From Acidobacteriota bacterium (GTDB lineage: Bacteria > Acidobacteriota > UBA6911 > RPQK01 > JAJDTT01): a DNA stretch of 64,000 nucleotides. A model generated the notes under the pieces. The model did not search any database and was not told where the DNA came from. It saw nothing but the letters and a program-made list of their open reading frames with translations. The position numbers and the translations under genes were made by a program. The stretch spans positions 32,001-96,000 of the forward strand of contig OZ253580.1 in the NCBI GenBank assembly GCA_965263035.1. Direction: 5' to 3'. Each line of letters starts with the position of its first letter. Position 1 is the first letter of the stretch. Of this stretch, positions 5,528-57,324 are shown in pieces.

Positions 5528-6157
5528 GTGCGCCCGACATGGGCTGTATCTAAGGGATGAAAGATCCCAAGGGAGGTGATGGGACCAACCCTAGCCGAAC
5601 CGCAAGGCGTAGCCGCGAGGTGAAGCTGAAGGAAGCGGAAGGCAAACCCACGACCGCAGGAACACGAACCGGCAGTGAGGCCGGGTGCGGGCGGTGAGCT
5701 GGCGAGCAACAGCGAAACCCGAACCCCATCCAGACGCATCAGGTAGAGCCGGGCGGCCCGGGGGGAAAGATGCAGCACCTTACTCGGGGAGATCTCAAGG
5801 GTGAGAGCCCTTGAGAAGTCAGCAGAGGTCGTAGTAGCGAAGAAGCTGGGTAATGCCGGTGGAGCGAAGGACCGAAGGAGTCGGACTGGCCCTATGGTGG
5901 ACTCGTCAGCGGGATCGCAACTACCTCCGAAAACGGGCCGTGGGGAGGCCCCTCGGACCCGGCATGGAAGGCCCACGGGTGGAGCCCGGCAAGCCGGAAG
6001 GGCGGAGATCAAGTCTCAGCGGCGGCGGAAACCGGAAAGAAAGGCCCTGTACGAGGCTCGAAAGAGCCTCGGGTGACTCCAACCGCCGGATACTGAAAAC
6101 GGTATGTCCGGTGGTGTGGGAGGGTGCAGGGGCGCAATCCCCTGCACTCGACCCGAT
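5528..6157 (+). ncRNA. group IIC intron ribozyme, ORF-less (630 nt)
   Basis: 5' GTGCGCCCG; short domain V with CGC triad (AACCGCCGGATACTGAAAACGGTATGTCCGGTGG); DVI ends CCCGAT; inserted right after a hairpin; no RT ORF. Confidence 0.9.
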
Positions 6158-9270: not shown

Positions 9271-10442
9271 ATGTCTAGTTACACCTCCAATTTCGCCGTC
9301 CGTCTATTCTACAGTTATAGCCACAAAGACAGTCATTTTCGCGACTCTATGGAAGACTCGCTTTCATTGCTCAAACAACGTGGATTGCTCGATGACTGGT
9401 CAGATGTAAAGATTTTACCCGGAGGAAAGATCTCGAAAACCAACAGGAAGAAGATGGATAACGCTGACATCATGGTGTTTCTTCTCAGCCGGAACTTCAT
9501 TGCTTCGACCGAGTGCATGAAGGAATGGGAGTACGCAAAGCGTCGTACTAATGAAAAAGTGCTCGTCCGCATTCCAATAATTCTATCCGATTGTGCGTGG
9601 CTAGATTTGCTTGGGAGCGACGACATCAAAGCATTGCCGCGAGATGGCAAACCTATCATGCGATTTGCCGATGACGGTGGCGCCTGGCAACAGGTATATG
9701 AGGGCATTAAAGTCGTTGTAGACAACTTACGAACAACTTTCACTCCAAAACAGGAATTCTTGGAGATAATGGAGAAAACCGATTTCTTGTCCGTACAACA
9801 CATTAGACTACAGGACATTTTTATATTTTTAAGATTGTCCTGTTACGCACCTCATGCAAGGGGGGAACATCCACCAAAAGAACAGGTTGACACCATAGAG
9901 GAGCTATTAAAGAATAAATATACGATAGTCCACGGTGACGAGATGAGTGGCAAGACAGCTCTCGGGCGCTTTCTGTTTCTTTCTCTGACAAAGGAGTTGG
10001 AACCTGTTCTGCATATAGATTTGCAACATCTTCCTAGACGTCCCCTTCGAGAAGAAACCTTTCGCCATACATATCACCGGCAGTTTAATGGCGATTATTC
10101 TCTCTGGAAGCGACAGCCTTCAAAAACCCTTATATTGGACAACTTGCAGCCAACTCCTCAATTAGTTAAATTTATTGTACTCTCCAAGGATTATTTCGAT
10201 AAAATAATAGTTACTTTATCGTCTGATATATTCAACTCGTTTTTCAGGGACGAAGAGCGTCTGGCCGAATTCTATGAAATGGAAATTGAACCGCTTACTC
10301 ACCGACAGCAAGAGACGTTGATTAGAAATAGACTCCGATTGTCGGATCGTAGCGAAACAATCACCGACGGCGTCGTCGATCAAATAGAAAACCGAGTGAA
10401 TTCCATAATCATTTCTAACAGGATCGTACCACGGTATCCATT
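9271..10442 (+). pseudogene. TIR-domain + P-loop (STAND-like) NTPase, 5' part; split by the IS1595 cargo element
   Basis: TIR motifs LFYSYSHKD and FIASTECMKE (catalytic Glu); Walker A HGDEMSGKT; frame joins 19074-20387 across the TSD (IVPRYP|FYVLSILQ). Confidence 0.88.
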
Positions 10443-10493
10443 GGGGACTACACAGATGTCTAGGCACGCCCAAATGCGCCAAATCAGAGACTA

Positions 10494-10710
10494 TCAATCT
10501 CGCACGAAAGTGCTAGAATAGGAAGAGGGGAGCACAACAACCAAGGGCCACACCATCACAACTGCAAGGCCATCAGTCATCTTAAGGCTCCCCTGCCCCA
10601 TTGCCTACCGAATCAGGTAGAATGGCGGGGAGGGGAGCATAAAAACCAAGGCCGACACTAACACAATTAGATCAGCGGCATCAGTCATCTTAAGGCTCCC
10701 CTCCATCATT
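10494..10710. other. two paralogous stem-closed cassettes: ncRNA (+) and/or 27-28 aa hydrophobic peptides (-)
   Basis: AGGGGAGC...GCTCCCCT closing stems, shared CATCAGTCATCTTAAG, TAGAAT upstream of each; minus-strand ORFs 10494-10580 and 10605-10688 both begin MTD. Confidence 0.55.
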
Positions 10711-10716
10711 TCATTA

Positions 10717-10907
10717 TACTGCTTGCCTGTAAGATCAGACCCACGAAAGTGCTAGAATGGGATGGAGGCGGGTTGCCCGACTTTGGATGATGGGGCCTGT
10801 TTCAGAAACAGGTTGGTCCTTATGGCCACGGAGGTTCGAGTCCTCCACCCGCCTCCATCAGGGTTATTGTACTGCTTGCCTGTAAGATCAGACCCACGAA
10901 AGTGCTA
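10717..10907 (+). repeat. 38-bp perfect direct repeat flanking a tRNA-like gene
   Basis: TACTGCTTGCCTGTAAGATCAGACCCACGAAAGTGCTA at 10717-10754 and 10870-10907. Confidence 0.9.
10767..10857 (+). tRNA. tRNA-like gene, anticodon CAG (Leu), Ser-type long variable arm, U73, encoded CCA
   Basis: Acceptor GGCGGGT/ACCCGCC; anticodon arm CCTGT-TTCAGAA-ACAGG; T arm GGAGG-TTCGAGT-CCTCC. Confidence 0.85.
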
Positions 10908-11159
10908 CAAGCCCTGTCGGTGAGACCTTTCTTTTGGAGTCAATGCCCATTCGACACCTCTCGGTTGATGGACTTTCCCTTGGTCCCTTAACAGTTTGAG
11001 TTGTCCTGTAGTAATTGCATTGAACCCCTGCTCTGGCAAACCGAGCTTTTCAGTAATTGGACTTAACGACAACCCCTCCTCGTATTTCTCCAATAGATTC
11101 AAGATTCCAGCTTGGATCAAGCGTTCTCCCATCTCTGCAAGCATTCTAGCCTCTGCCAT
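10905..11159 (-). CDS. small winged-helix-like protein
   Basis: AGGAGG RBS; ILNLL...GLSLSPITEKLGL...LKLLRDQGKV pattern typical of wHTH. Confidence 0.6.
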   Translation of the reverse strand: MAEARMLAEMGERLIQAGILNLLEKYEEGLSLSPITEKLGLPEQGFNAITTGQLKLLRDQGKVHQPRGVEWALTPKERSHRQGL

Positions 11160-11185
11160 CTGCTTCCTCCTAAGTAAAATACATC

Positions 11186-11485
11186 ATGGAACTAGGATTC
11201 ACACTTCCACCCACCCGACCCCGCCCAAAGATCCCTCTACAGCAAACGTGTAAGAGGTGTGGGCAACCAGACAAGTTCGACTTCCACGTACCAGATCATC
11301 TTTGGAAGTCTATAGTCCCAAAGTCCCATCGGAACCTTGCTATGTGTCTGTATTGCTTCGATGAGGAGGCCGCCGCTAAAGGTATTCCCTACGCGTGGGC
11401 CATCACTGAGTTTTGTTTTGCAGGCCGCGGAGCCACATTTGGCTTCACGGTGTCACGATACGTTGAAAAGAGGCAACTGATCTAG
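11186..11485 (+). CDS. small Zn-finger-like protein
   Basis: CKRC...CLYC pairs. Confidence 0.55.
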   Translation: MELGFTLPPTRPRPKIPLQQTCKRCGQPDKFDFHVPDHLWKSIVPKSHRNLAMCLYCFDEEAAAKGIPYAWAITEFCFAGRGATFGFTVSRYVEKRQLI

Positions 11486-11649
11486 TCGTCACAGTCGCCG
11501 TCCTTTTCTTTGGCCTGGCACTGATTGCAAAGTTCCCCGCTGGTCGGCTTCGCGTTCCTGCTAACGTAGTCGTCCGTTGGCCAGTTGGAACAGTTGCGGC
11601 AATAGTGCCACGTATCGCTCGTTCTTCGCTTTCGGTATTGTCTCGCCAT
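11482..11649 (-). CDS. small Cys/His-rich protein (55 aa)
   Basis: WHYCRNCSNWP...ELCNQC; AGGGGGTG RBS. Confidence 0.65.
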   Translation of the reverse strand: MARQYRKRRTSDTWHYCRNCSNWPTDDYVSRNAKPTSGELCNQCQAKEKDGDCDD

Positions 11650-11766
11650 GCTTTTCACCCCCTTTCTGGCTAGTCGTGATCCCATTAAGGAAGGAATCAG
11701 AGGAGCTTGATAAGAGACTTCAAATATAGCTTGAGTGCACGCCCAAATGCGCCAAATCGGATATTC

Positions 11767-11979
11767 TCAATCGTCAATCTGAGAGGCAGCGAACTCCAAG
11801 ACTCGGGCTAGTTCTCGGGCTTGGTTAGTACTCATATATGAGTAAACATTACCGTTTTCAATCCTCAGTTCCAGTGGGTAAGTCTCTTTGCAATCTTCCT
11901 CGTGAGGGTATCGAAGGCGAACTTCCCTGGTGGGGTACGCGCTCAATGTGATCTCAAATTCTTTCTTACTGTCTATCAT
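11767..11979 (-). CDS. hypothetical protein (70 aa)
   Basis: GGAGGAGAGG RBS; lies directly downstream of a 36-aa ORF at 11992-12102 (MAIVIIVLQHL...). Confidence 0.55.
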   Translation of the reverse strand: MIDSKKEFEITLSAYPTREVRLRYPHEEDCKETYPLELRIENGNVYSYMSTNQARELARVLEFAASQIDD

Positions 11980-12548
11980 GGTCCTCTCCTCCTATAGTCC
12001 CAACATTCGAGCAAACTGCTCCTTGGTCATGCCGTCATAAATGCTGCGTTTCGGCCTGAAGAAGTTATTTAGATGTTGCAGTACAATAATGACAATTGCC
12101 ATTGGTTTACATCTCCATAGTTATTTCATTGGCAACGGCCAGGGGGTTTGGGAGTTCTTCCCCCTGGCCACTAACCTTCCTCAGATATCATACCACAGAA
12201 TCAGGAAAAGGGAACGGCGGGGAAGAGCGGAGGAGTCTGACGGCTCCGAAGCGACACACTACGCATCAGATCCGACACCCGGCTTTCCAGTGTGTCACAG
12301 GCTCCCTTGCGTGCGTGAGCAAGTAGGCAAGGAGTTCATCCTCCGCTCCTCTGTCCTCTTATTGTACTCCGTGTGCAATACGTGGAGGATTTAGGAGGCG
12401 GCGCGGCTCCAACATGGAGCAAAGGGTTTTGTGTAGCCAGTTCAGTTAGGCAAAAACGCGCCGCCCTGGTAAATGCCTACCATGATATTCGATGGAGTGC
12501 AACCTGTGATCTGGATTTCTTGTCACAGGTGGTCTACGATGCGGTGGA

Positions 12549-12652
12549 GGAGGGGTGGCAGAATTGGCATTGCACTCGAATTTAAACTCGTAGGTCAGTA
12601 GGCGTTGCACCACAGCGCACCTGTACGGGTTCAAATCCCGTCCCCTCCTCCA
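12549..12652 (+). tRNA. aberrant tRNA-like gene (104 nt): 8-nt anticodon loop ATTTAAAC, very long variable arm, U73, CCA
   Basis: Acceptor GGAGGGG/CCCCTCC; D arm GCAGAATTGGCATTGC; T arm ACGGG-TTCAAAT-CCCGT; anticodon ambiguous (TTA counting from the 5' side). Confidence 0.65.
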
Positions 12653-12662
12653 TTGTGATGTC

Positions 12663-12751
12663 GGGAGCGTGGCCGAGTTGGATTATGGCGCCCGGCTGAA
12701 AACCGGGTGGGTGTAACAGCCCCGCAGGTTCGACACCTGCCGCTCCCGCCA
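12663..12751 (+). tRNA. tRNA with a Ser-type body (G73, long variable arm) and anticodon GAA (Phe), encoded CCA
   Basis: Acceptor GGGAGCG/CGCTCCC-G-CCA; anticodon arm CCCGG-CTGAAAA-CCGGG; T arm GCAGG-TTCGACA-CCTGC. Confidence 0.88.
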
Positions 12752-12773
12752 TCAATTCATAATACTCGGAGCA

Positions 12774-13223
12774 TCAAAAAAGCCTTTGACTTCGTTGGAG
12801 CAGGCCATCGAGTCTTCCTTTCGGAAGTTTTCCAACAGATTCCCAAATCGTCTCTCCAAAAACCGCCTCATACGATCCTGATTCGATGAACTCAGTAGCG
12901 TTTAGCGAGAGGATGACCCCAACACAGTCCGCCAGTATCAGTGCGGCCAGCGCCTCACGTCGGACCATCCCTCCAAAACCATTACGGGCACCAAAATCAA
13001 TTAGGACTAGTCGATACCCTTTAAGTTCAGGAGAGCTAGACGCGATCGTTTTTATTACTGTAGTGCTGTACACCTCCAGGCTGTTAGGGTCTGTCAACTT
13101 CTGTTGAATCTGCTCGTTTAGACCCGGAACACTGCCGTCTGAACTCATGCAATTAGACCCACTCGACGGCGTACAATTGGCGGTCAGAAGCACAAGAAGC
13201 AAAACGGTGCAGGAGTTTTCCAT
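12774..13223 (-). CDS. putative lipoprotein
   Basis: Hydrophobic signal ending LTANC; DFGARNGFGGMVR motif. Confidence 0.6.
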   Translation of the reverse strand: MENSCTVLLLVLLTANCTPSSGSNCMSSDGSVPGLNEQIQQKLTDPNSLEVYSTTVIKTIASSSPELKGYRLVLIDFGARNGFGGMVRREALAALILADCVGVILSLNATEFIESGSYEAVFGETIWESVGKLPKGRLDGLLQRSQRLF

Positions 13224-13254
13224 AACTCAATCTTTAATTAGAATAGATGTAGAC

Positions 13255-13343
13255 GGCGGGTTGCCCGACTTTTGGATGATGGGGCCTGTTTCAGAAACAG
13301 GTTGGTCCTTGTGGCCACGGAGGTTCGAGTCCTCCACCCGCCG
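13255..13343 (+). tRNA. tRNA-like gene, anticodon CAG (Leu), Ser-type variable arm, G73, no encoded CCA
   Basis: Near-identical copy of 10767-10857 with the discriminator changed to G; TAGAAT at 13239-13244. Confidence 0.83.
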
Positions 13344-13477
13344 CCCTTGCAATGAAGGAGGATGAGAACCGAAACCGTGCCTTCCCTAACTTCACACTGC
13401 CGACTAGAGCAGCTTAAAAGAAGGCGAGTAACGAACCGAAAAGCTCATCCTCCTCCATCAATTTATAATACTTTGAC

Positions 13478-14755
13478 CTAAAGTCCTGGCACAGAACTGC
13501 ACTTCGATGGAACGATCACAGGATCATCCGATTCCTCAGACTCTCGGTACCTAATAGACCCTCTTTGCGACCAGGGGAGGTTAGGCACATCGGGCAGTTC
13601 AATCTCTGTTCTAGTACCGCCTACGAATCCCTTATCTGGCACCAGTACCCATTCACCACGCCTGTACCAGATGTGAGATCGTGCCCAGACCCGCGAGTAC
13701 CTAATATCGATCGGATCATCTTCGGACATACGTCGGTGGAAAGCGCCGATGTTTGGATTAGGTTTAGAGCTACTAGAAAAGGAACTCGTCCAACTCAGCT
13801 TTCCAGAGAAATTCAACCTGGCCGTAGCGACACATCGACCTGGTCTTTCTTCAAATACCTGGTGGATCTGGTATCCTTGTGCAGTATCAGGCAACTCATA
13901 TCCGCCATCAGAGGTACGGGTTCTACCACCTCCTGCAGGAACCACTGACATCCCATTCTCCAGAGCAGGAGGGATCCCTTGGTAGTCAGCACGTGCTGCC
14001 TTCCCATAGATGCCTTCTATTGTGGTGTCAAAAGCTCCCTTTTCCCGTATTACAATGTCTCTCCAGTCACCAGGGGGACAGTCACCTTCCGTCACGTCTG
14101 GAGGGCCTTCATACAATCGCTCCCACTGTGCTTCATGCCACCGGGCGTTTCCATACTCCGGAGCAAAAGACTCAACTACCATCAAGGTGTAATCGAGCCC
14201 TGTCCCTGACTCTGGGTCGTCCACTTTGACAAGCCAACGCTTGAACTCATCTACAACTCGCCGATTCATGTCGGAGTAGCTTTTGACTCCGACAATGTGC
14301 CCACGGAAGTACTCGGTCCCAGAGAACGAATCAGAGAGAACACGTATACATTCCTCTGTCTTGAGGACTTCATGGGCATCTTGAATGGGCGCTTCGGTGA
14401 GCTCCACTGATTCGCACTCGAGTTCGTCTTTGAATCTAAAGGAGTCTGTTGGGTCCTTGTCTCCATAGATGAGTACAAGAGGGTCGGGAAGAGGAACGAC
14501 CATTGCAGCAAAGAACTTCCCTGACTCGTACTCTGTGACTCTCCACTCATAGATGTGACCACAATGGATCGCATCAAAAAATTCTAGGTTGATGATCTGA
14601 CCGTCGTGGGGAGGCTCTGAAAGACTCACCTCAACGCGACAATCTGGACAGGCGTTAGGGATAAATCCGTATGGAGTGTCGAATCCCCACTTCTCCTCGG
14701 CTTGTACATTCGCCAGGAATGCAGCAAAGGCCATTAGCACAATTACTTTTCTCAT
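13478..14755 (-). CDS. secreted acidic, Cys-containing hypothetical protein
   Basis: AAGGAGG RBS; signal peptide MRKVIVLMAFAAFLANVQA. Confidence 0.75.
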   Translation of the reverse strand: MRKVIVLMAFAAFLANVQAEEKWGFDTPYGFIPNACPDCRVEVSLSEPPHDGQIINLEFFDAIHCGHIYEWRVTEYESGKFFAAMVVPLPDPLVLIYGDKDPTDSFRFKDELECESVELTEAPIQDAHEVLKTEECIRVLSDSFSGTEYFRGHIVGVKSYSDMNRRVVDEFKRWLVKVDDPESGTGLDYTLMVVESFAPEYGNARWHEAQWERLYEGPPDVTEGDCPPGDWRDIVIREKGAFDTTIEGIYGKAARADYQGIPPALENGMSVVPAGGGRTRTSDGGYELPDTAQGYQIHQVFEERPGRCVATARLNFSGKLSWTSSFSSSSKPNPNIGAFHRRMSEDDPIDIRYSRVWARSHIWYRRGEWVLVPDKGFVGGTRTEIELPDVPNLPWSQRGSIRYRESEESDDPVIVPSKCSSVPGL

Positions 14756-14783
14756 AGCGTACCTCCTTACTCTGTATTCAGAT

Positions 14784-15128
14784 TCAGAATCCCAATGCCT
14801 TGCGGGCGAACTTCTGGATCTGTTTCCACATAATGACCTGATCGAAGTGATGGTCAACGCCGTAATGGTCAGTGTGCGTTATACCATCCTTCAAAATCTC
14901 GCCTGCAATGGGGAGCACGGAGTCGGGAGTCCACCGAGTCAGAACGTCCGAAGGATCGTCCGTCCGGCACAGGTACATCTGTGCTGTAATAACGATCATG
15001 TAGTCGCCTGTGTCGGACGGAATCACGAACAGTGCGTTTGGAGGAGTCTCCACCTCCGTGTTCCAAGGGTGTCCCACACCAAACGCGACGGATAGAATTG
15101 TGATAGCGATTAGCAATGTGTTTCTCAT
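14784..15128 (-). CDS. secreted hypothetical protein (114 aa)
   Basis: AAGGAGG RBS; signal peptide; likely co-transcribed with 13478-14755. Confidence 0.7.
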   Translation of the reverse strand: MRNTLLIAITILSVAFGVGHPWNTEVETPPNALFVIPSDTGDYMIVITAQMYLCRTDDPSDVLTRWTPDSVLPIAGEILKDGITHTDHYGVDHHFDQVIMWKQIQKFARKALGF

Positions 15129-15349
15129 AATGCCTCCTTCTCGTACCTTGTGTACGACTTGTTGATTTATGACATCGGTGACCGACGCATTTAGTACACT
15201 ATTATATCACATTATAATAGATGCACAAAGCAAGACGACCAAGGAATTAAGGAAGTATTCGGAAGGGGCGGGACAATAACAAACCGCCCCTTCGAACATC
15301 GCTCCGGGGTCGGGTGAAAGTAGTAAAGCCCTCCCCCATGTGGGAGCGA

Positions 15350-15586
15350 TTACCGGGGTGGCCGAATCAAAGCTACACCTTCATCGTCGTACTGTCCGAC
15401 CCAATTATCGTGGGACAGACGATGTCGGGCGTGCGATCTCAACTGTGCCCGAGTTGCCGGGAGGAGCAGACCCATGAGGCGCGTCTGATCCTGAGCGAGG
15501 GGCAACAACGCTTCCCAGGTAATGCCTCCTGGCGCAGTCATCAAGTGATCGAGGTATCCGGCGTAGGTGCTGAAATTGCGGGGCAT
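15350..15586 (-). CDS. hypothetical protein (78 aa)
   Basis: AGGAGG RBS; preceded by a long structured leader. Confidence 0.5.
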   Translation of the reverse strand: MPRNFSTYAGYLDHLMTAPGGITWEALLPLAQDQTRLMGLLLPATRAQLRSHARHRLSHDNWVGQYDDEGVALIRPPR

Positions 15587-15991
15587 CGCGGGTCCCTCCT
15601 GGGGGAGGGTCCCGTATCAGAGGCGTAGCAAGCTGACAACGTATCGGGTAAACTGTCTGACAGGCTGACTTTCCTCCAACACAGGACCAGTTGGCTCAGA
15701 GTCCGTTGGGTGCTGATATCACCTGACGGACTCACCTTTTCAGAGTACTCGGCCTAGCTACAAGGAGCACTCGTTCCCTTGTAAGGGAGCCGGGTCTGAG
15801 TGCTCATCGAACAGCGATGCTGATGGAAGAGTTGCTTATTCACCCGGCGCGGTTCATGAGGCCACGCTTTACCAGGTTGTTTTATTCAGCAAGAGACCCG
15901 ACACAAGCGAATCACTGCCGAGAGCACTGAGGCGGGATTGTGCCGGATAAATAATTGGTAGTCAATAGAAGGGAGAAAATTATCTCAACTC

Positions 15992-16219
15992 TCAGCGGAG
16001 GGTGTCCACCACGGCATTCCGTACCGATTCCATCCAGGTCTCAATCTCCCGCTGGTGTTGGACCAGGGCCTTTACCTTGTCGTCCACAATCCGCAGCCGT
16101 CGGATAATGAGCAGGTGAGAGACGATGATGAGGAATAGGACCAGGAGCAAGGCGAAGGCGTACCAGTGTTGATCGACGATGGGAGGGATTCGGGAGAGTA
16201 ATGAGTTGAGCTGTTCCAT
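15992..16219 (-). CDS. small single-TM membrane protein
   Basis: One hydrophobic helix YAFALLLVLFLIIVSHLLII followed by a coiled-coil-like tail. Confidence 0.6.
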   Translation of the reverse strand: MEQLNSLLSRIPPIVDQHWYAFALLLVLFLIIVSHLLIIRRLRIVDDKVKALVQHQREIETWMESVRNAVVDTLR

Positions 16220-16272
16220 GCTTCAATCTTCCTGCTTTGCCGAAGTATAATACATACATGGCGGAGGGTTGA

Positions 16273-16348
16273 TGGACGCAGCGGGCTTCGGACCCGCGTC
16301 TCCCGGTTTTCAGCCGGGTGTGTTATCCGGGATAAACACTATGCGCCC
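16273..16348 (-). tRNA. tRNA with Ala identity elements (G3:U70, A73) and anticodon GAA (Phe)
   Basis: On the minus strand: acceptor GGGCGCA/TGCGTCC-A; anticodon arm CCCGG-CTGAAAA-CCGGG; T arm GCGGG-TCCGAAG-CCCGC. Confidence 0.82.
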
Positions 16349-16475
16349 TCGGTTTGCTTTTCCCTCCGCCATTCTAAACATCTTGCCAAGGTCAGGGGTC
16401 TTTGGTATTTTGGCCTCTCTCGCGCATGATTGTAGGCAATCAATATTATGTGTTATCATGTGTTCTTCAATGATG

Positions 16476-16551
16476 TGGAGCCGGTGCCAGGAATCGAACC
16501 TGGACACGAGGACTTGCTGGGCCCCGGCGTTTGCCATTCCGCCACACCGGC
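16476..16551 (-). tRNA. tRNA-like gene, anticodon AGC (Ala), no G3:U70, U73, CCA
   Basis: Acceptor GCCGGTG/CACCGGC-T-CCA; loop CCAGCAA; T arm CCAGG-TTCGATT-CCTGG. Confidence 0.8.
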
Positions 16552-16575
16552 TCCCTTCATTATAGACCGTCAGAG

Positions 16576-16651
16576 GGGAGCCGGTGCCAGGAATTGAACC
16601 TGGAAACAAGGAATTGCGAGTCCCCGACCTTGGCCACTCAGTCACACCGGC
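16576..16651 (-). tRNA. tRNA-like gene, anticodon CGC (Ala), no G3:U70, U73
   Basis: Second unit of a 100-bp tandem repeat; loop CTCGCAA; 3' end TCCC. Confidence 0.8.
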
Positions 16652-16675
16652 TCCCTTCATTATAGACCGTCAGAA

Positions 16676-16751
16676 GGGAGCCGGTGCCAGGAATCGAACC
16701 TGGAAACAAGGAATTGCCACTCCCCGACCTTGGCCACTCGGCCACACCGGC
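16676..16751 (-). tRNA. tRNA-like gene, anticodon GGC (Ala), no G3:U70, U73
   Basis: Third unit of the 100-bp tandem repeat; loop GTGGCAA; 3' end TCCC. Confidence 0.8.
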
Positions 16752-16871
16752 TCCCTTCATTTTAGCACAGGGGGACTATCGTGAAAAAACGACCTCGCAA
16801 GCCCGTGGACATCCTAGCCCTGGCAATGCGCCGGGCTTATGAGCAAACTAGGGGCGGAGAAGCCGAATCCC

Positions 16872-17843
16872 TCAATGAAGATCGTCCGCCTTGTCGGAAA
16901 CCAGATCGAGATACAGCAGACGACGACCGACCATCCCCGCCACGATGTGCTTCATCTGGTCAATAGTATCCAGTTCCCGGATGTTGTGACGCTTGACAAA
17001 CTCGTTGACGTAGCGGTGCAGGTGCTTCACGCTCAAGCTGTGGAACGTCCCCATGTAGCCCCGCTTCAACATCGACCAGAAGGATTCGATGCCATTTGTG
17101 TGTACTATGCCGTCAACGTACTGTTGAGCGCTGTGTCTCACAGACTTGCGATTTGAGCCCATCCAGGCGTAAGCCTGATTCTCGTCCGTGTACGACTTCA
17201 CTCCGAAAGTGGAGCTGTCCAAAATGAACCGGGCAAGAGTCTCCTTTGTCGTGTCCGGCACCACCCTGGCCCTGATTTGATTCGTAGGCCGGTCCTTCAT
17301 GCCTACCACTGCGGTCTTGCCTGAGGGTCCACGACCGGAAAACATCGCCCGTCGCTTCTTGCTCATGTTCCTCCGCTTGCCTCCCATATAAGTCTCGTCG
17401 ATTTCCACGGGACCGATCAGAGCTTCCAAATCGTCCTTGTCCAAGGACTCGCGGAGTCGGTGCAACATGAACCACGCCGTATTCTGCGTCACGTCGATGT
17501 CTCGATGGAGTTTCATCGAGGAGACTCCCTTGAGGTTCGTGACGTAGATGAAAATGGCGTAGGCCCATTTTCGGAGCGGAACCTTGGATCTTGTCAAGGC
17601 CGTGCCAGTGCGGACGCTGAAATACCTACGGCAGTCCGAACACCAGTACGGCTGCGGATATCGGTTTGGCGTCTCATTCGTCTTGACGCTGCCGCAATGA
17701 CCACAGCACCGTTCCTCGGGCCAGAGAACATCCTCAAACCATTTCGTCGCGGCTTCCTCCGTGGGGAACATCTCCGCGAGTTGGATCATTGAGATCCCTT
17801 GTCGGTAGAACTTTCCGGGGGCTTTCCCCTTGCACTTGTCCAT
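16872..17843 (-). CDS. IS1595-family (ISXO2-like) transposase, intact
   Basis: Zn ribbon CGHCGS/CSDC, AWFMLHRLR, VEIDETY, YTDE, HTNGIESFWS, YVNEF. Confidence 0.93.
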   Translation of the reverse strand: MDKCKGKAPGKFYRQGISMIQLAEMFPTEEAATKWFEDVLWPEERCCGHCGSVKTNETPNRYPQPYWCSDCRRYFSVRTGTALTRSKVPLRKWAYAIFIYVTNLKGVSSMKLHRDIDVTQNTAWFMLHRLRESLDKDDLEALIGPVEIDETYMGGKRRNMSKKRRAMFSGRGPSGKTAVVGMKDRPTNQIRARVVPDTTKETLARFILDSSTFGVKSYTDENQAYAWMGSNRKSVRHSAQQYVDGIVHTNGIESFWSMLKRGYMGTFHSLSVKHLHRYVNEFVKRHNIRELDTIDQMKHIVAGMVGRRLLYLDLVSDKADDLH

Positions 17844-18079
17844 GGTGGGCCTTTCGTGGTAGGATTCTCGGGACGCGGCTGAACCGAGGAACCCACGGCC
17901 TGGCAACCTCCGTTTGTAAGTGAGAGACCAGAGCGCAGGACCTGCTTCGAAACCGCGTCCAATTCAATTATATCACACCTTTATAGATGGTGTTTTTATC
18001 AGCCTTACTCTCCTTTAATTCCCTGTAATTATGCCATCGGACCCTGACATTTTTCTGTCATAAATCCTTTGTTTAGTTT

Positions 18080-18438
18080 AAGGTTACGAAGATTTAATTG
18101 ACCTTTTGTGTGATTGTGTGGTAAAATTATTGGGTTAATGTGAACAGGAGGCATGATGACTAAGAAGGAACTCAACGGATTCACAGAGGCAGTTCGAACG
18201 GTTGTCCGAGAGGAATTAAAGCCGATTGAGCAGCGTCTCGACAAACGCCTTGACGACTTGAAGAAGGAAATCCCTGGTCTAGTTGCGGACGTGATCGCAC
18301 AACGATTTCCAACCCTGTTCCCACACTCATAGGCTGCCAGATCAATTAGGAGGAAGGTTACGAAGATTTAATTGACCTTTTGTGTGATTGTGTGGTAAAA
18401 TTATTGGGTTAATGTGAACAGGAGGCATGATGACTAAG
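18080..18438 (+). promoter_or_regulatory. duplicated 85-bp promoter+RBS+start block
   Basis: Identical at 18080-18164 and 18354-18438: TTGACC-N18-TAAAAT with extended TG, AGGAGG, ATGATGACTAAG. Confidence 0.8.
18153..18332 (+). CDS. small coiled-coil protein (59 aa, MMTKKELNGFTEAVR...)
   Basis: Hand-translated; strong promoter and RBS; N-terminus paralogous to 18427-18705. Confidence 0.7.
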   Translation: MMTKKELNGFTEAVRTVVREELKPIEQRLDKRLDDLKKEIPGLVADVIAQRFPTLFPHS

Positions 18439-18705
18439 GAAGAACTCAACGGTTATGTCAACGCCGTCAGGCTCGTGGTCCAGGAGGAACTTGAGCCCGT
18501 CAAATCTCAGATTACAACCCTGACTCTTCGAATGGGAGATGTGGAACTGAGGTTGGGAGAGGTTGAAGCCAGAATGGGCACGTTGGAGTCTCGCATGGGA
18601 ACGGTCGAGGCCAGAATGGGGACATTGACTCAGAGAATGGGTGATGTTGAGACTAAGGTAGGGGCGTTGACTCAGAGAATGGGTGATGTTGAAGCCAAAT
18701 TGTAG
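18427..18705 (+). CDS. heptad-repeat coiled-coil protein (92 aa)
   Basis: 7-aa repeats such as RMGDVEL, RLGEVEA, RMGTLES. Confidence 0.75.
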   Translation: MMTKEELNGYVNAVRLVVQEELEPVKSQITTLTLRMGDVELRLGEVEARMGTLESRMGTVEARMGTLTQRMGDVETKVGALTQRMGDVEAKL

Positions 18706-19073
18706 GATGGGGTGATGGAGGAGAACGACTAGACGTAGTTGTAGGGGTAGGTGACTACTGCCCCTCCGGGGGGAGCGATGGAGTTAGTCAAACTACCACT
18801 CCCTCTGTCCCCTCCATCATTTAATTATACTCCCCACGAAAGTGTAGAATGGGATGATGGAGGAGGGAAACCAATCCTGCCGTCCCATGTATTAACACCA
18901 CAATCGGCAGGGCTACCGTTGAGGCACACCCCAAGGCGGTAGGCTGCTCAGCGATAGTGTGTCTTCCACTGGGTCCAGCCATCGCCCTCCTCCATCATGT
19001 GATTGTACTCCCCACGAATGTAAGGCCCAGTTCAATGACCCTGGAGGCGTGCCTAGACATCTGTGTAAGCCCC

Positions 19074-20387
19074 TATCCATTCTACGTACTCTCAATACTC
19101 CAAACCTACGAGGCCTTTATGCCTAGTGAGCTCTCTATTACTTCCTACGGTCACTGTTACTATGTCCTTATTATTGCCAACTTAGTTAAGGCAGGCATAC
19201 CTCGTAGCGACGATCAACTAAATACATGTTTTTACTTTGCAGAACGCTTAGCATTTGAAATTTATCGGATTGCAAGGAAATCCAACTCGGGGTCGTTGGA
19301 TTTTGACAAGTTTGTGGCGGACTACAGAAATCAATATATAATTTCGCGATCGGTCCTGAGTAGGTTGATGCATCCCGATTTTGGAATCATCAATACAGAA
19401 GGTCAATTCAAAACAGCGTACATGTACTACTTCTTTCTGGGCAGGTTCCTCTCGAAGAACCGCAGCACACACATATCCATAATTGAGAATATGTGTGAAA
19501 ATAGCCACGTGACTTCGAACCACCTGACGCTTCTTTTCGTTATTCATCATACTGATGATAGACAAATAATTGATGACATATTGCTTAGGACAATGTGCAC
19601 ACTGGACACTGTGCAACCCGCGGTTCTAGATCGAACGGAAACTCGGAGATTCAAGGATATCATTGCCGGGCTCCCCACAAATATACTCTCCAATGATAGT
19701 GTGGTGAAGGAAAGGAAAAGACAGAGGGATGGTCGCGACTTGACCGAGAAGCAAGACGGGTACGATGGTGATACGGATGGCATCGATCAACAAAGCCTGG
19801 TTAACGACATTTACAAAATCTTTAAAAATAACGAGATTATGGGGCAAATTCTACGAACCAAATACGGAACGTTAAAAAAAGAGACGATTGTGGAAATCAT
19901 CGAGACGATTGCGGACAGTGGGCTACGCCTTGTCAACTTTGTCCTCAAGGATGAAAAGGAAATAGCCGATACCGCCCACTACCTTCATGCGAAATATCCG
20001 AAGGATGATATAAAGAAGATAAAAAACTATCTTCAATTCTTTTCTTTTTTCTGGACGATAGTAAATGTTGAAAAAGTTGCTAGAGCCATAAATGTTCCAG
20101 AGATTATTGAAACGGTCGATTCAGTCGTTACGCGGAAGGGGTCGCCGGCGTACGATCTTATTGGATACTTCAGCCTGCTCGACAGTTCTCCGGAAATCTC
20201 AAGGAAAGTTAATAAACGACTAGGATACCTATTGAACACTCACAAGGACCTGTTTGTTAAGTGGGTGTTGTCAATTAGAACGCAATACTATATGAATACC
20301 CACGATAGTGGGGCATCGATGGAGCAATCGGTCTGTTCGTTGTTAGATATCAAGTATTCCTCAGCCCATCGTTCCTTACGACGGTAA
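19074..20387 (+). pseudogene. TIR-NTPase gene, 3' part (reconstituted protein about 825 aa)
   Basis: In frame with 9271-10442 once the element and one TSD copy are removed; same low-GC codon style. Confidence 0.88.
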
Positions 20388-56694: not shown

Positions 56695-57324
56695 GTGCGC
56701 CCGACATGGGCTGTATCTAAGGGATGAAAGATCCCAAGGGAGGTGATGGGACCAACCCTAGCCGAACCGCAAGGCGTAGCCGCGAGGTGAAGCTGAAGGA
56801 AGCGGAAGGCAAACCCACGACCGCAGGAACACGAACCGGCAGTGAGGCCGGGTGCGGGCGGTGATCTGGCGAGCAACAGCGAAACCCGAACCCCATCCAG
56901 ACGTACCAGGTAGAGCCGGGCAGCCCGGGGGGAAAGATGCAGCACCTTACTCGGGGAGATCTCAAGGGTGAGAGCCTTTGAGAAGTCAGCAGAGGTCATA
57001 GTAGCGAAGAAGCCGGATAATGCCGGTGGAGCGAAGGACCGAAGGAGTCGGACTGGCCCTATGGTGGACTCGTCAGCGGGATCGCAACTACCTCCGGAAA
57101 CGGGGCGGGGGGAGGCCCCTCGGACCCGGCACGGAAGGCCCAAGGGTGGAACCCGTCAAGCCGGAAGGGCGGAGATCAAGTCCCAGCGGCGGCGAAAACC
57201 GGAAAGAAAGGCCCTTTACGAGGCTCGAAAGAGCCTCGAGTGACTCCAACCGCCGGATACTGAAAACGGTACGTCCGGTGGTGTGGGAGGGTGCAGGGGC
57301 GCAATCCCCTGCACTCGACCCGAT
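56695..57324 (+). ncRNA. group IIC intron ribozyme, ORF-less (630 nt), second copy
   Basis: Near-identical to 5528-6157; inserted after the CGGCGGCAAGAAAGCCGCCG hairpin. Confidence 0.9.

Follow-up and report, generated by a model that had tools for sequence, protein, structure and literature searches.

A framed array of putative small-RNA genes inside an IS1595-family transposon of Acidobacteriota

The interior of an IS1595-family transposon from an Acidobacteriota genome is, on balance, probably an array of self-contained small-RNA genes that share one frame, each a transcription unit of its own. Within the window, by which we mean the 64,000 nucleotides of contig OZ253580.1 that were analyzed, positions 10443-19073 are a single 8.6-kb transposon, and the interval for which the first-pass annotation had proposed a common cassette grammar is its interior. 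The RNA cargo comprises at least 15 cassettes: eight are tRNAs, and the remainder are structured RNAs without an Rfam family, which fall into at least three families (Table 1).

The host transposon

IS1595-family elements with passenger genes have a DDE_Tnp_IS1595 transposase, terminal inverted repeats, an 8-bp target duplication typical of the family, and cargo between their ends. The element described here shares all of these: its 28-nt terminal inverted repeats are flanked by an 8-bp duplication, and its transposase matches DDE_Tnp_IS1595, the zinc-ribbon model (PF12760) reaching only 23.4 bits, below its 25.4 cut-off. It is inserted in a TIR-STAND gene whose ORF is restored in frame once the element is removed; because both halves of this gene remain intact, the insertion appears to be recent. 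The transposon is present as a single copy in the genome, and the contigs are identical in runs from three studies. IS1595 relatives in these genomes are mostly plain insertion sequences, and the portions of the literature on IS1595, tRNA and passenger genes available to us yielded no report of RNA-gene cargo in such elements.

Table 1. Coordinates of the transposon and its cargo in the window.
Feature	Position	Strand	Basis or remarks
Target-site duplication TATCCATT, left copy	10435..10442	.	identical 8 bases at 19074-19081
Left terminal inverted repeat, IS1595-family transposon	10443..10470	.	31-nt match to 19046-19076 with 90% complementarity
Cassette A1, of family A, with TGCTAGAAT box and an 8-bp helix that closes an A/C-rich payload	10514..10602	.	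folding, family alignment
Cassette A2, also of family A: TAGAAT, closing helix of 10 bp with CCTCCATCA at its end, TATAAT opposing	10618..10720	.	
Putative promoter module CACGAAAGTG-CTAGAAT, type II tRNA (10767-10857), opposing TACAAT box	10742..10873	+	
Type II tRNA	10767-10857	+	CAG anticodon on a Ser-like body, U73; a 6-bp leader pairing takes in NCCA and continues past it
Cassette N3: multi-branched RNA, long closing helix, opposing TACAAT at 12361	12218..12368	.	folding, box search
Cassette N4: 9-bp G+C closing helix enclosing two hairpins; boxes not clear	12394..12468	.	
Two-gene unit: tRNA-like 12549-12649, type II tRNA 12663-12751; opposing TATTAT at 12759	12541..12766	+	
Degenerate type II tRNA-like	12549-12649	+	39.4 bits; anticodon arm unformed
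Type II tRNA	12663-12751	+	anticodon GAA, G73, Ser-like body
TAGAAT and type II tRNA 13255-13345 (+), then family C RNA 13350-13462	13239..13472	.	
Type II tRNA	13255-13345	+	anticodon CAG, G73
TATTAT box facing family C RNA 13350-13462 (probably minus strand)	13465-13470		
TAGAAT, 9-bp outer helix GGCGGAGGG/CCCUCCGCC round tRNA 16273-16348, then AUUAUACU	16244..16376	-	
tRNA	16273-16348	-	anticodon GAA, G3:U70, A73, atypical D and T loops
Three tandem 100-nt tRNA units, each with a -10 box	16476..16790	-	ARAGORN, Rfam, repeat search
IS1595-family transposase	16872..17843	-	DDE_Tnp_IS1595 (PF12762) 1.5e-34, 119.6 bits
Cassette N6: TAGGAT, 11-12-bp helix TGATGGAGG/CCTCCATCA round three hairpins, opposing TATAAT	18704..18831	+	
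Cassette N7: CACGAAAGTG-TAGAAT, 14-bp helix round three hairpins, opposing TACAAT	18835..19009	.	
Right terminal inverted repeat	19046..19073	.	inverted-repeat comparison
Target-site duplication TATCCATT, right copy	19074..19081	.	read from sequence

A recurring frame around varied payloads

Folding recovers a closing helix in each of the seven non-tRNA intervals, at the place where the first-pass annotation had put it. Their shuffle z-scores are -0.58 (10520-10606), -4.18, -2.17, -3.72, -4.74, -4.44 and -4.32, the first of these meaning that the A1 fold is no better than that of shuffled sequences. The motifs said to bound the cassettes are also present and in excess: firstly, CCTCCATCA ends occur 8 times in the 64-kb window against 0.79 expected, 7 of them within the interval and the eighth, at 2874, outside any cassette; secondly, TAGAAT stands at 10514, 10618, 10753, 13239 and 18845, and TAGAATRG occurs 8 times against 1.35 expected, with a further copy at 16369-16376 (minus strand) and two others outside cassettes; thirdly, reverse TAYAAT boxes lie at 10713, 10866, 12361, 18824 and 19002, and ATWRTACT occurs 10 times against 1.10 expected, with further copies at 12759, 13465 and 16244 (minus) and two matches away from cassette ends. 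The CAC-GAAA-GTG motif CACGAAAGTG has four exact copies, every one inside the interval (10503, 10742, 10895, 18835).

The proposed order of box, stem, payload, stem and box exceeds chance, but the boxes seem to delimit transcription units and not every cassette. Across four elements, a forward box marks the 5' edge of 17 of 29 cassettes (background 5.4%) and a reverse box the 3' edge of 14 of 29 (background 6.0%), counts that are non-independent because cassettes within an element are paralogues, with 4-5 copies per family. Most of the cassettes without boxes lie within tandem units, as inner members.

Three further IS1595 transposons, from two related Acidobacteriota genomes of two genera (loci L007 and L009 in the same genus, L093 in a sister genus), have this frame with their payloads shuffled, and in a genome from another family one framed cassette adjoins a gene of IS1595 type. 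The transposases of the frame-bearing elements are only 57% identical. Families A and C are shared across genomes and genera; their loops do not vary and their stems are compensated, so that pairing survives changes on both sides, as the earlier reading of the closing stems required. In family C, 8 of 28 pairs are changed on both sides and 94.9% of cells are paired, none of 500 shuffles matches the score, and slid controls pair 35-54%; in family A, 8 of 25 pairs have changes on both sides; with 4-5 paralogous copies per family, this covariation is based on few sequences. Because the frame recurs with shuffled payloads and two families show compensated stems, the description of these cassettes as interchangeable small-RNA units is supported: one frame holds varied payloads, and the IS1595 transposons of three genomes share payload families in differing combinations. 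N3, N4, N6 and N7 had no relatives among 76 genomes of the order.

These comparisons bear on the view that the array is a decaying set of tRNA genes, the non-tRNA cassettes being eroded copies and the frame merely inherited through duplication. There is a graded series of forms, in which the tRNA-like gene at 12549-12649 keeps acceptor, D and T arms and lacks the anticodon arm; ARAGORN, with lowered thresholds and introns allowed, reads N3 as a tRNA that has a 41-nt intron; and flanking modules are near-identical duplicates. Decay is nonetheless very unlikely to account for the array, since families A and C persist across genomes and genera, no Rfam family is matched at an E of 1 or better by any of the seven non-tRNA payloads, and the intact halves of the target gene imply a recent insertion.

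Irregular tRNA genes

The tRNA ending at 10857 in the first-pass annotation is present, but it is one of eight tRNA-like genes. These score 39.4-52.9 bits (Rfam RF00005; gathering score 29 bits), six of the eight are detected by ARAGORN, and between 9500 and 20000 no further tRNA-clan match reaches an E of 1 or better. The host tRNA set is complete without them. Their bodies are at odds with their anticodons: the closest host tRNA of the type II CAG and GAA tRNAs is tRNA-Ser (0.70-0.74 identity), not Leu or Phe. The three tandem tRNAs have anticodons AGC, CGC and GGC with U73 and without G3:U70, behind boxes TATAAT, TATAAT and TGCTAAAAT placed 6-7 nt upstream. These mismatches suggest that the eight are likely missense decoders or tRNA look-alikes.

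ARAGORN gives an acceptor branch of 7/5 in four and 8/5 in two of the six, and the Rfam alignments fit 7/5. Type II tRNAs have D stems of 3-4 bp with loops of 8-10 nt; a long D hairpin occurs only in the G3:U70 tRNA. The first-pass annotation also proposed that the cassettes may be acceptor-stem mimics processed by RNase P; such RNAs would combine a helix bearing a free 3' RCCA with a 5' leader open to cleavage. CCA follows the helix in some cassettes, in differing registers (positions 74-76 at 10767, 71-73 at 16273). As for the leaders said to mask the NCCA end, pairing of at least 3 bp past the acceptor stem is found in 5 of 8 element tRNAs versus 10 of 56 host tRNAs, and three of the 8, versus 0 of 56, reach 6 bp or more; yet only 0-10 nt separate the -10 boxes from the stems, and most of the supposed masking leader would therefore escape transcription from them.

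Candidate promoters and the opposing box

TGnTAnnnT precedes 16 of 57 host tRNAs (background 0.4%), at 8-25 nt from the tRNA 5' end in the host and 6-10 nt in the element. We infer promoter activity, start sites and end processing, along with any regulatory or addictive role. The frame consists of a host-type -10 box (TAGAAT, often TGnTAGAAT), a 5' arm within 0-10 nt, the payload, a 3' arm often ending in ...CCUCCAUCA, and, 3-8 nt beyond it, AUWRUACU, which read from the opposite strand is a -10-like TAYWAT box. In the reading that we favor, every unit would be transcribed independently, from a start at the base of the terminal helix or slightly further in, which would leave the RNA with both ends paired from the moment it is made; the paired ends may act as an extended acceptor-stem-like terminus that stabilizes the RNA and defines its ends. 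The opposing box could be a true promoter for those payload families that are G/U-rich (A, B and C), or could yield an antisense RNA that curbs a potentially harmful sense RNA. Transcription starts ~7 nt downstream of a -10 box, and in most cassettes the 5' arm begins 0-6 nt past it; part of this arm would therefore be missing from the RNA, which a purely RNA-level reading leaves unexplained.

The reverse boxes have no host TG motif and conserve additional bases (ACT), and so may not be promoters. Intrinsic terminators (G+C hairpin plus T run) are fewer in the element (3) than in shuffled sequence (7.5), with none at cassette ends, and because the cassettes lack these canonical signals another 3'-end signal is needed. 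The helix with its A/U-rich AUWRUACU might serve as one, either as an unusual terminator or as a stem at which RNase III/E would process transcripts of several cassettes, its likeness to a reverse -10 box being incidental. Consistent with this, several cassettes are joined head to tail without their own box, the N7 inverted repeat spans 24 nt and reaches into both boxes, and motif conservation goes past TAnnnT. We consider this improbable all the same: the 4-nt spacers beside the N6 boxes are non-complementary, yet both boxes are equidistant; read from the other strand, all eight window copies retain a -10 hexamer's T, A and last T; and the minus strand suits family C better (28 pairs, -29.6 kcal/mol) than the plus (22 pairs, -17.8 kcal/mol). 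A G-U/G-C column of family C on the minus strand is A-C on the plus, and the RNA probably lies on the minus strand. N6 folds better as sense than antisense, by 12.8 kcal/mol; folding energies cannot fix the strand, because the antisense of a real tRNA gives a z of -5.1.

Type I toxin-antitoxin loci (Ibs/Sib, Hok/Sok) combine a short hydrophobic ORF, an overlapping antisense gene and tandem copies, and in the toxin mRNA 5'-3' pairing conceals the ribosome-binding site. The minus strand of family A appears to mirror these features: both window copies have GGAG, 6-7 nt, ATG and a hydrophobic ORF (in A2 of 27 codons, at 10608-10688), they differ by an in-frame 3-nt indel, and the Shine-Dalgarno sequence and start codon lie in paired bases. 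The cassettes might thus be RNA addiction or control modules, in which a putatively harmful sense RNA, be it a missense-decoding tRNA or a family A mRNA for a 27-28-residue hydrophobic peptide, would be countered by an antisense antidote from the opposing promoter, and the transposon stabilized as by type I toxin-antitoxin. Convergent boxes of the -10 type, placed 3-8 nt beyond the helix, recur despite the divergence of the transposases, and according to the part of Mukai 2017 (PMC5389517) consulted, Ser-identity tRNAs with Leu anticodons proved lethal to E. coli and are located close to toxin-antitoxin and transposon genes. We regard addiction as unlikely, however. The Shine-Dalgarno sequence and small hydrophobic ORF are intact in only 2 of 4 family A copies, the two G004 copies being broken by an in-frame TGA and a 1-nt insertion (frameshift); compensatory changes within the supposed ORF favor RNA over peptide; the peptides match no family in Pfam or NCBIfam; and the three tandem NGC tRNAs lack an opposing box. 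The analysis found no sequence relation to Ibs/Sib or Hok/Sok, and the majority of cassettes lack a credible ORF. It is also decidedly doubtful that mis-decoding tRNAs act as toxins and antisense RNAs as antidotes in an all-RNA addiction or conditional-mistranslation module mobile between genomes. There, tRNAs with Ser-like bodies would decode both Leu CUG and the Phe codons, Phe codons would also be decoded by an Ala-identity tRNA, and Ala codons by one with a Thr-like acceptor, and new structured RNAs would be included too, each framed with a convergent antisense promoter.

Relation to known systems

Integron gene cassettes have an array grammar in which conserved imperfect palindromic ends (attC) surround a variable center. 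Here the likeness is in pattern only: the payloads appear to be RNA genes bearing promoters, and the cassette ends are unlike attC core sites (compared by eye with their consensus). Palindromic ends that extend beyond the likely transcription start would suit elements acting as DNA, such as integron-like attC cassettes, miniature transposons or single-stranded DNA hairpins. This is extremely improbable, as cassette copies occur nowhere else in the 6.2-Mb genome, the DDE transposase is the only recombinase, with no integrase, among the element's scanned ORFs (at least 59 aa; Pfam, NCBIfam), the payloads include real tRNAs behind host-type promoters, and the stems use G-U pairs.

Among the published work that we consulted in part, the nearest system to the framed small-RNA genes is that of the allo-tRNAs, together with irregular tRNAs in polycistrons, described from Acidobacteria (Mukai 2017, PMC5389517). 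The parts compared describe, in the same phylum, extra tRNAs with long variable arms, G73/U73 or G3:U70 and foreign anticodons, and clustered irregular tRNA-like sequences; they also state links to toxin-antitoxin and transposon genes, and suggest that the RNAs serve as missense suppressors or regulatory RNAs. The element's tRNAs likewise appear to have the allo-tRNA trait of a non-cognate anticodon with either a long variable arm and G73/U73 or G3:U70. They differ in their acceptor branch (7/5 or 8/5, against the 12 bp, 8/4 or 9/3, of allo-tRNAs) and in the ordinary D arms of the type II tRNAs, where allo-tRNAs have a long D stem with a tetraloop. Those parts of the paper describe no frame that joins a -10 box to a terminal helix and an opposing box, no framed non-tRNA payloads and no carriage by IS1595, all of which are found in the element. 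The mycobacterial (PMC5966550) and cyanobacterial (PMC8421152) tRNA arrays, again as far as the portions consulted go, are similarly dense, horizontally mobile and redundant with host tRNAs. They are described as ordinary tRNAs in operons, whereas in the element every unit comes with a box of its own, the tRNA bodies conflict with their anticodons, and half of the units are not tRNAs.

The cassettes are cargo of a single IS1595-family transposon

The interval at 10443-19073 is bracketed by inverted repeats of 28–31 nt (2 matches versus 0 expected), carries the same 8 bases, TATCCATT, outside each of them, and encodes a transposase with an IS1595 DDE domain (1.5e-34); on these grounds it is a single 8.6-kb IS1595-family transposon. 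An ORF ending just inside its left end matches TIR_2 (1.9e-12) and, weakly, STAND NTPases, and by reading the right-end ORF fuses in frame with it once the element is taken out together with one copy of the duplicated bases. This transposon-split gene, of defence-type TIR_2 and STAND-like NTPase architecture, has both halves still open. The element is present once in the 6.2-Mb genome, which holds distant paralogues of its transposase only, and contigs of runs from three studies match the window exactly, showing neither variation nor ends; no empty target site was found among 14 related genomes.

Readings of the cassettes as miniature transposons, attC sites or retrons were rejected, because there are no dispersed cassette copies in the genome and the element's scanned ORFs (Pfam, NCBIfam) include no integrase or reverse transcriptase. 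A repeat of 36 nt, its two copies 89% identical, lies partly within the inner portion of the left inverted repeat and again 1.3 kb further in; it may be a transposase-binding site or the trace of a nested insertion. Many IS1595 transposase paralogues of this genome and of two others (G002 and G007) are full-length, with ~52% identity to the query and exactly one in-frame TGA, which could be a common defect or recoding.

Features of the element and its surroundings (window positions)
Feature	Position	Strand	Remark
Group II intron RNA domains	5609-5872		85.5 bits
Split TIR_2/STAND-like gene	9271-10442 and 19082-20387		halves still open
IS1595-family transposon	10443-19073		8.6 kb
Inverted repeats	10443-10470 and 19046-19073		28–31 nt
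36-nt repeat	10464-10499 and 11737-11772		89% identical
tRNA-like	10767-10857		Rfam/ARAGORN
70-codon ORF	11767-11979
Box, hairpin and 36-codon ORF	12041-12200	minus	by reading
tRNA-like	12549-12649		Rfam/ARAGORN; without anticodon arm
tRNA-like	12663-12751		Rfam/ARAGORN
tRNA-like	13255-13345		Rfam/ARAGORN
Family C cassette (N5)	13350-13462
-35/-10 pair facing family C	13492-13465
426-aa cargo protein	13478-14758	minus	secreted
Region without convincing ORF	15200-15990		~0.8 kb
ARAGORN call, lowered threshold	15582-15715
tRNA-like	16273-16348	minus	Rfam/ARAGORN
Three tandem tRNA-like	within 16476-16752	minus	Rfam/ARAGORN
99-nt promoter and leader	18080-18178 and 18354-18452		98% identity
Small coiled-coil ORF	18153-18332
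Small coiled-coil ORF	18427-18705		42-nt periodic repeats
Group II intron RNA domains	56776-57039		76 bits

Cassettes share a frame around exchangeable payloads

The first-pass annotation had proposed a common cassette grammar, in which a -10 box, a G-rich arm, a variable payload, a C-rich arm ending in (N)CCA and an opposing -10 box follow one another. All seven closing stems that it described in the non-tRNA intervals fold as it had them, and six of the seven intervals are more stably folded than their shuffles, with z between -2.2 and -4.7, the exception being A1, a family A copy (z -0.58). The motifs were also in excess over shuffles of the window: CCTCCATCA was found 8 times (0.79 expected), TAGAATRG 8 times (1.35 expected) and ATWRTACT 10 times (1.10 expected). 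On the minus strand, the tRNA at 16273 lies within a 9-bp outer helix with TAGAAT directly upstream and AUUAUACU downstream, which makes an eighth frame; the frame is therefore independent of orientation. Across 29 cassettes from four elements, a TAnnnT box stands at the 5' edge of 17 (background 5.4%) and, in reverse, at the 3' edge of 14 (background 6.0%), and those without boxes are mostly inner members of head-to-tail units (12549 with 12663, 13255 with N5, and tandem family C copies). The non-tRNA payloads have no Rfam match at an E of 1 or better.

The cassette pattern is real, exceeds chance and is cargo of a mobile element; its parts may serve as promoters on one or both strands, in end formation and in the control of harmful RNAs. 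If the frame works in this way, it would be a natural portable small-RNA expression cassette, with its promoter, a helix that pairs the ends and a 3' signal packed into ~40 nt, and a simple DDE transposon would be able to spread tRNAs that alter codon reading along with new structured RNAs.

Related elements combine the same payload families differently

G004, a genome of the same genus, carries two such transposons, L007 and L009, whose ends and duplications were assigned by reading only. L007 contains two copies each of families A and B and three tRNAs behind TAGAAT-type boxes, with CATTGTACTCC after a cassette; L009 contains a 150-nt cassette framed TAGAAT / GATGGCGGAG ... CTCCGCCATCA / ATTGTACT, a tRNA behind TATAAT and a type II GAA tRNA behind TAGAAT. 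G010, from a sister genus, has a transposase that is 57% identical, four family C copies, a G3:U70/A73 tRNA (anticodon UAG) nested within an outer helix of 8 bp, and three ends of the form ...CCAU...AAUAAUACU. In G044, a genome of a different family, one cassette with the ending CCTCCATCA ... ATTATACT is present twice, and the copy that was read adjoins an IS1595-type gene. The cassette pattern is common to several elements with exchanged payloads: they have payload families in common, differently combined, and the earlier view of these RNAs as interchangeable units is supported.

The majority of IS1595 relatives are simple insertion sequences, and among eighteen loci with related transposases only L009 has tRNAs adjoining the transposase gene; two tRNA-Ser genes at another locus, L022, are by reading outside the element. 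Two 3'-frame patterns gave 21 matches (control 2) and 26 matches (control 7). Among the matches that were read, those that form cassettes come only from the host genome, G004, G010 and G044, with two further genomes (G014, G042) ambiguous; the other first-pattern matches that were read are ordinary sequence, and for the second pattern's extra matches the reading covered these genomes. Among 76 genomes of the order, a family C covariance model matched only the host (one match) and G010 (four matches), and no relatives of the cassettes N3, N4, N6 and N7 were found. An exact family A pattern recovered only the G004 record from genome contigs and only two unrelated gene starts from metagenome contigs; in the genome, no trans target of family A was found when 4 mismatches or fewer were allowed. 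A weak sRNA-Xcc1 match at L093 12124-12220 (minus), of 37 bits and so below the 53-bit threshold, falls in a long palindrome immediately beyond the G010 element.

Stems and coding strand of the non-tRNA families

The covariation check that the first-pass annotation had set for the stems came out in favor of those of families A and C. In family C (five copies), 94.9% of cells are paired over 28 pairs, 8 of which have changed on both sides; the covariation score was reached by none of 500 shuffles, and sliding the partners lowers pairing to 35–54%. Family A (four copies) has both-side changes in 8 of its 25 pairs. These changes suggest that the stems of both families are under selection, as first support and not proof, because the copies are few and related.

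True tRNAs fold better in sense than in antisense by 0.6–6 kcal/mol; families A, B and C fold better in antisense by 6–17 kcal/mol, with 4–8 G-U pairs. Strand calls based on folding energy or on z-scores were discarded as unreliable, since a true tRNA is outscored by its own antisense (z -5.1). Family C forms 28 pairs on the minus strand (-29.6 kcal/mol) and 22 on the plus strand (-17.8 kcal/mol), one of its columns is G-U in four copies and G-C in one on the minus strand and would be A-C on the plus, and a -35/-10 pair faces it. Given this fold, column and facing pair, the evidence leans towards the "opposing box" as the real promoter of family C. The element offers a test locus with a defined putative promoter pair and three new RNA families, A and C having first covariation support.

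For family A, the strand evidence conflicts: a closing-stem U-G in one copy is workable on the plus strand only, and a start-codon helix of G-U pairs on the minus strand only. On the minus strand, the two window copies show GGAG, followed after 7 nt by ATG and then by 27–28 mostly hydrophobic codons, the two ORFs differing by an in-frame 3-nt indel; of the G004 copies, one has an in-frame TGA and the other a 1-nt insertion. Neither the family A peptides nor the element's small ORFs match any Pfam or NCBIfam family, and family A is a weak candidate for a type I toxin-like peptide gene.

The element tRNAs and their putative promoters

Rfam and ARAGORN combined identified eight tRNA-like genes in the element, more than had been annotated at first. 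They show a number of irregularities: firstly, three type II tRNAs, two with anticodon CAG and one with GAA, have U73 or G73 and are nearest to host tRNA-Ser (0.70–0.74 identity), not to tRNA-Leu(CAG) or tRNA-Phe; secondly, the tRNA at 16273 combines anticodon GAA with the alanine marks G3:U70 and A73, a D hairpin of 7 bp and a T loop that lacks the customary UUC; thirdly, the three tandem tRNAs have anticodons for Ala codons (AGC, CGC, GGC) but no G3:U70, their acceptor stem with U73 differs from that of host tRNA-Thr(CGU) in one of 7 pairs, and one of them has C33. By sequence and predicted fold, these tRNAs are unusual.

Outside the element, ARAGORN called 57 host tRNAs, covering all amino acids. 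TGnTAnnnT lies at most 40 nt upstream of 16 of the 57, compared to a background of 0.4%, which argues that TAGAAT with TG two bases earlier is the host's own promoter type. In CACGAAAGTG-CTAGAAT, that TG comes from GTG. The CAC-GAAA-GTG sequence noted before promoters is indeed repeated (four exact copies of CACGAAAGTG, all within the element); since its GTG supplies the TG, we take it to belong to a promoter-and-spacer module that is repeated, and not to be the hairpin first suggested. From box to tRNA 5' end there are 8–25 nt in the host versus 6–10 nt in the element, so that with the usual box-to-start spacing of ~7 nt the element leaders would be 0–3 nt long. Leaders complementary to the NCCA end, which would mask it, are enriched, with leader–trailer pairing of at least 3 bp in 5/8 element tRNAs versus 10/56 host tRNAs and of at least 6 bp in 3/8 versus 0/56; however, much of this complementary DNA is upstream of the probable start, and no explanation offered accounts for such placement.

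Extra tRNAs of Acidobacteria have been described whose variable arms are long, which have G73/U73 or G3:U70 and other amino acids' anticodons, and which are toxic in E. coli, together with clustered irregular tRNA-like sequences and links to transposon and toxin-antitoxin genes (Mukai, 2017; PMC5389517). The element tRNAs resemble these in features predicted from sequence, but come out negative in the 8/4 or 9/3 test that defines them there. The question raised there, what irregular acidobacterial tRNAs do and how toxic ones are tolerated, gains a concrete locus. In the literature, as judged by titles and abstract openings, no shared frame, no non-tRNA payloads in such a frame and no IS1595 carriage were found described.

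Elsewhere in the host genome (G000:C1 2101850, 2914932, 5348837 and 5672126), each of four additional tRNA-Leu(UAA)-like genes begins with CCCCGG (C1:G72 pair); their 35-nt upstream flanks are identical in two and similar in two, and another repeated element probably carries them.

Other cargo

The 426-aa secreted protein, which lacks any known (Pfam) domain, has Cys and Trp conserved at many positions. Among 76 genomes of the order it occurs only in the host (one copy) and in G004 (two copies; L007 about 10780-12030 and L009 about 12290-13900), and all three copies lie inside cassette-bearing transposons; a large protein collection holds only 15 relatives, and as bait over genome contigs the protein found nothing.

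The duplicated 99-nt promoter and leader (TTGACC-18-TAAAAT) precedes two small coiled-coil ORFs, and by reading G010 has a similar ORF next to its transposase gene (L093 about 11070-11290, minus). Directly before a 70-codon ORF stand a TGGTATGAT box, a G+C hairpin of 12 bp and an ORF of 36 codons, which by reading only possibly form with it a small two-gene cargo operon. The region without a convincing ORF contains several hairpins and a weak ar35 match (E 0.13), and may hold further frame-less RNAs. On either side of the element, the window contains group II intron RNA domains (D1–D4 models).
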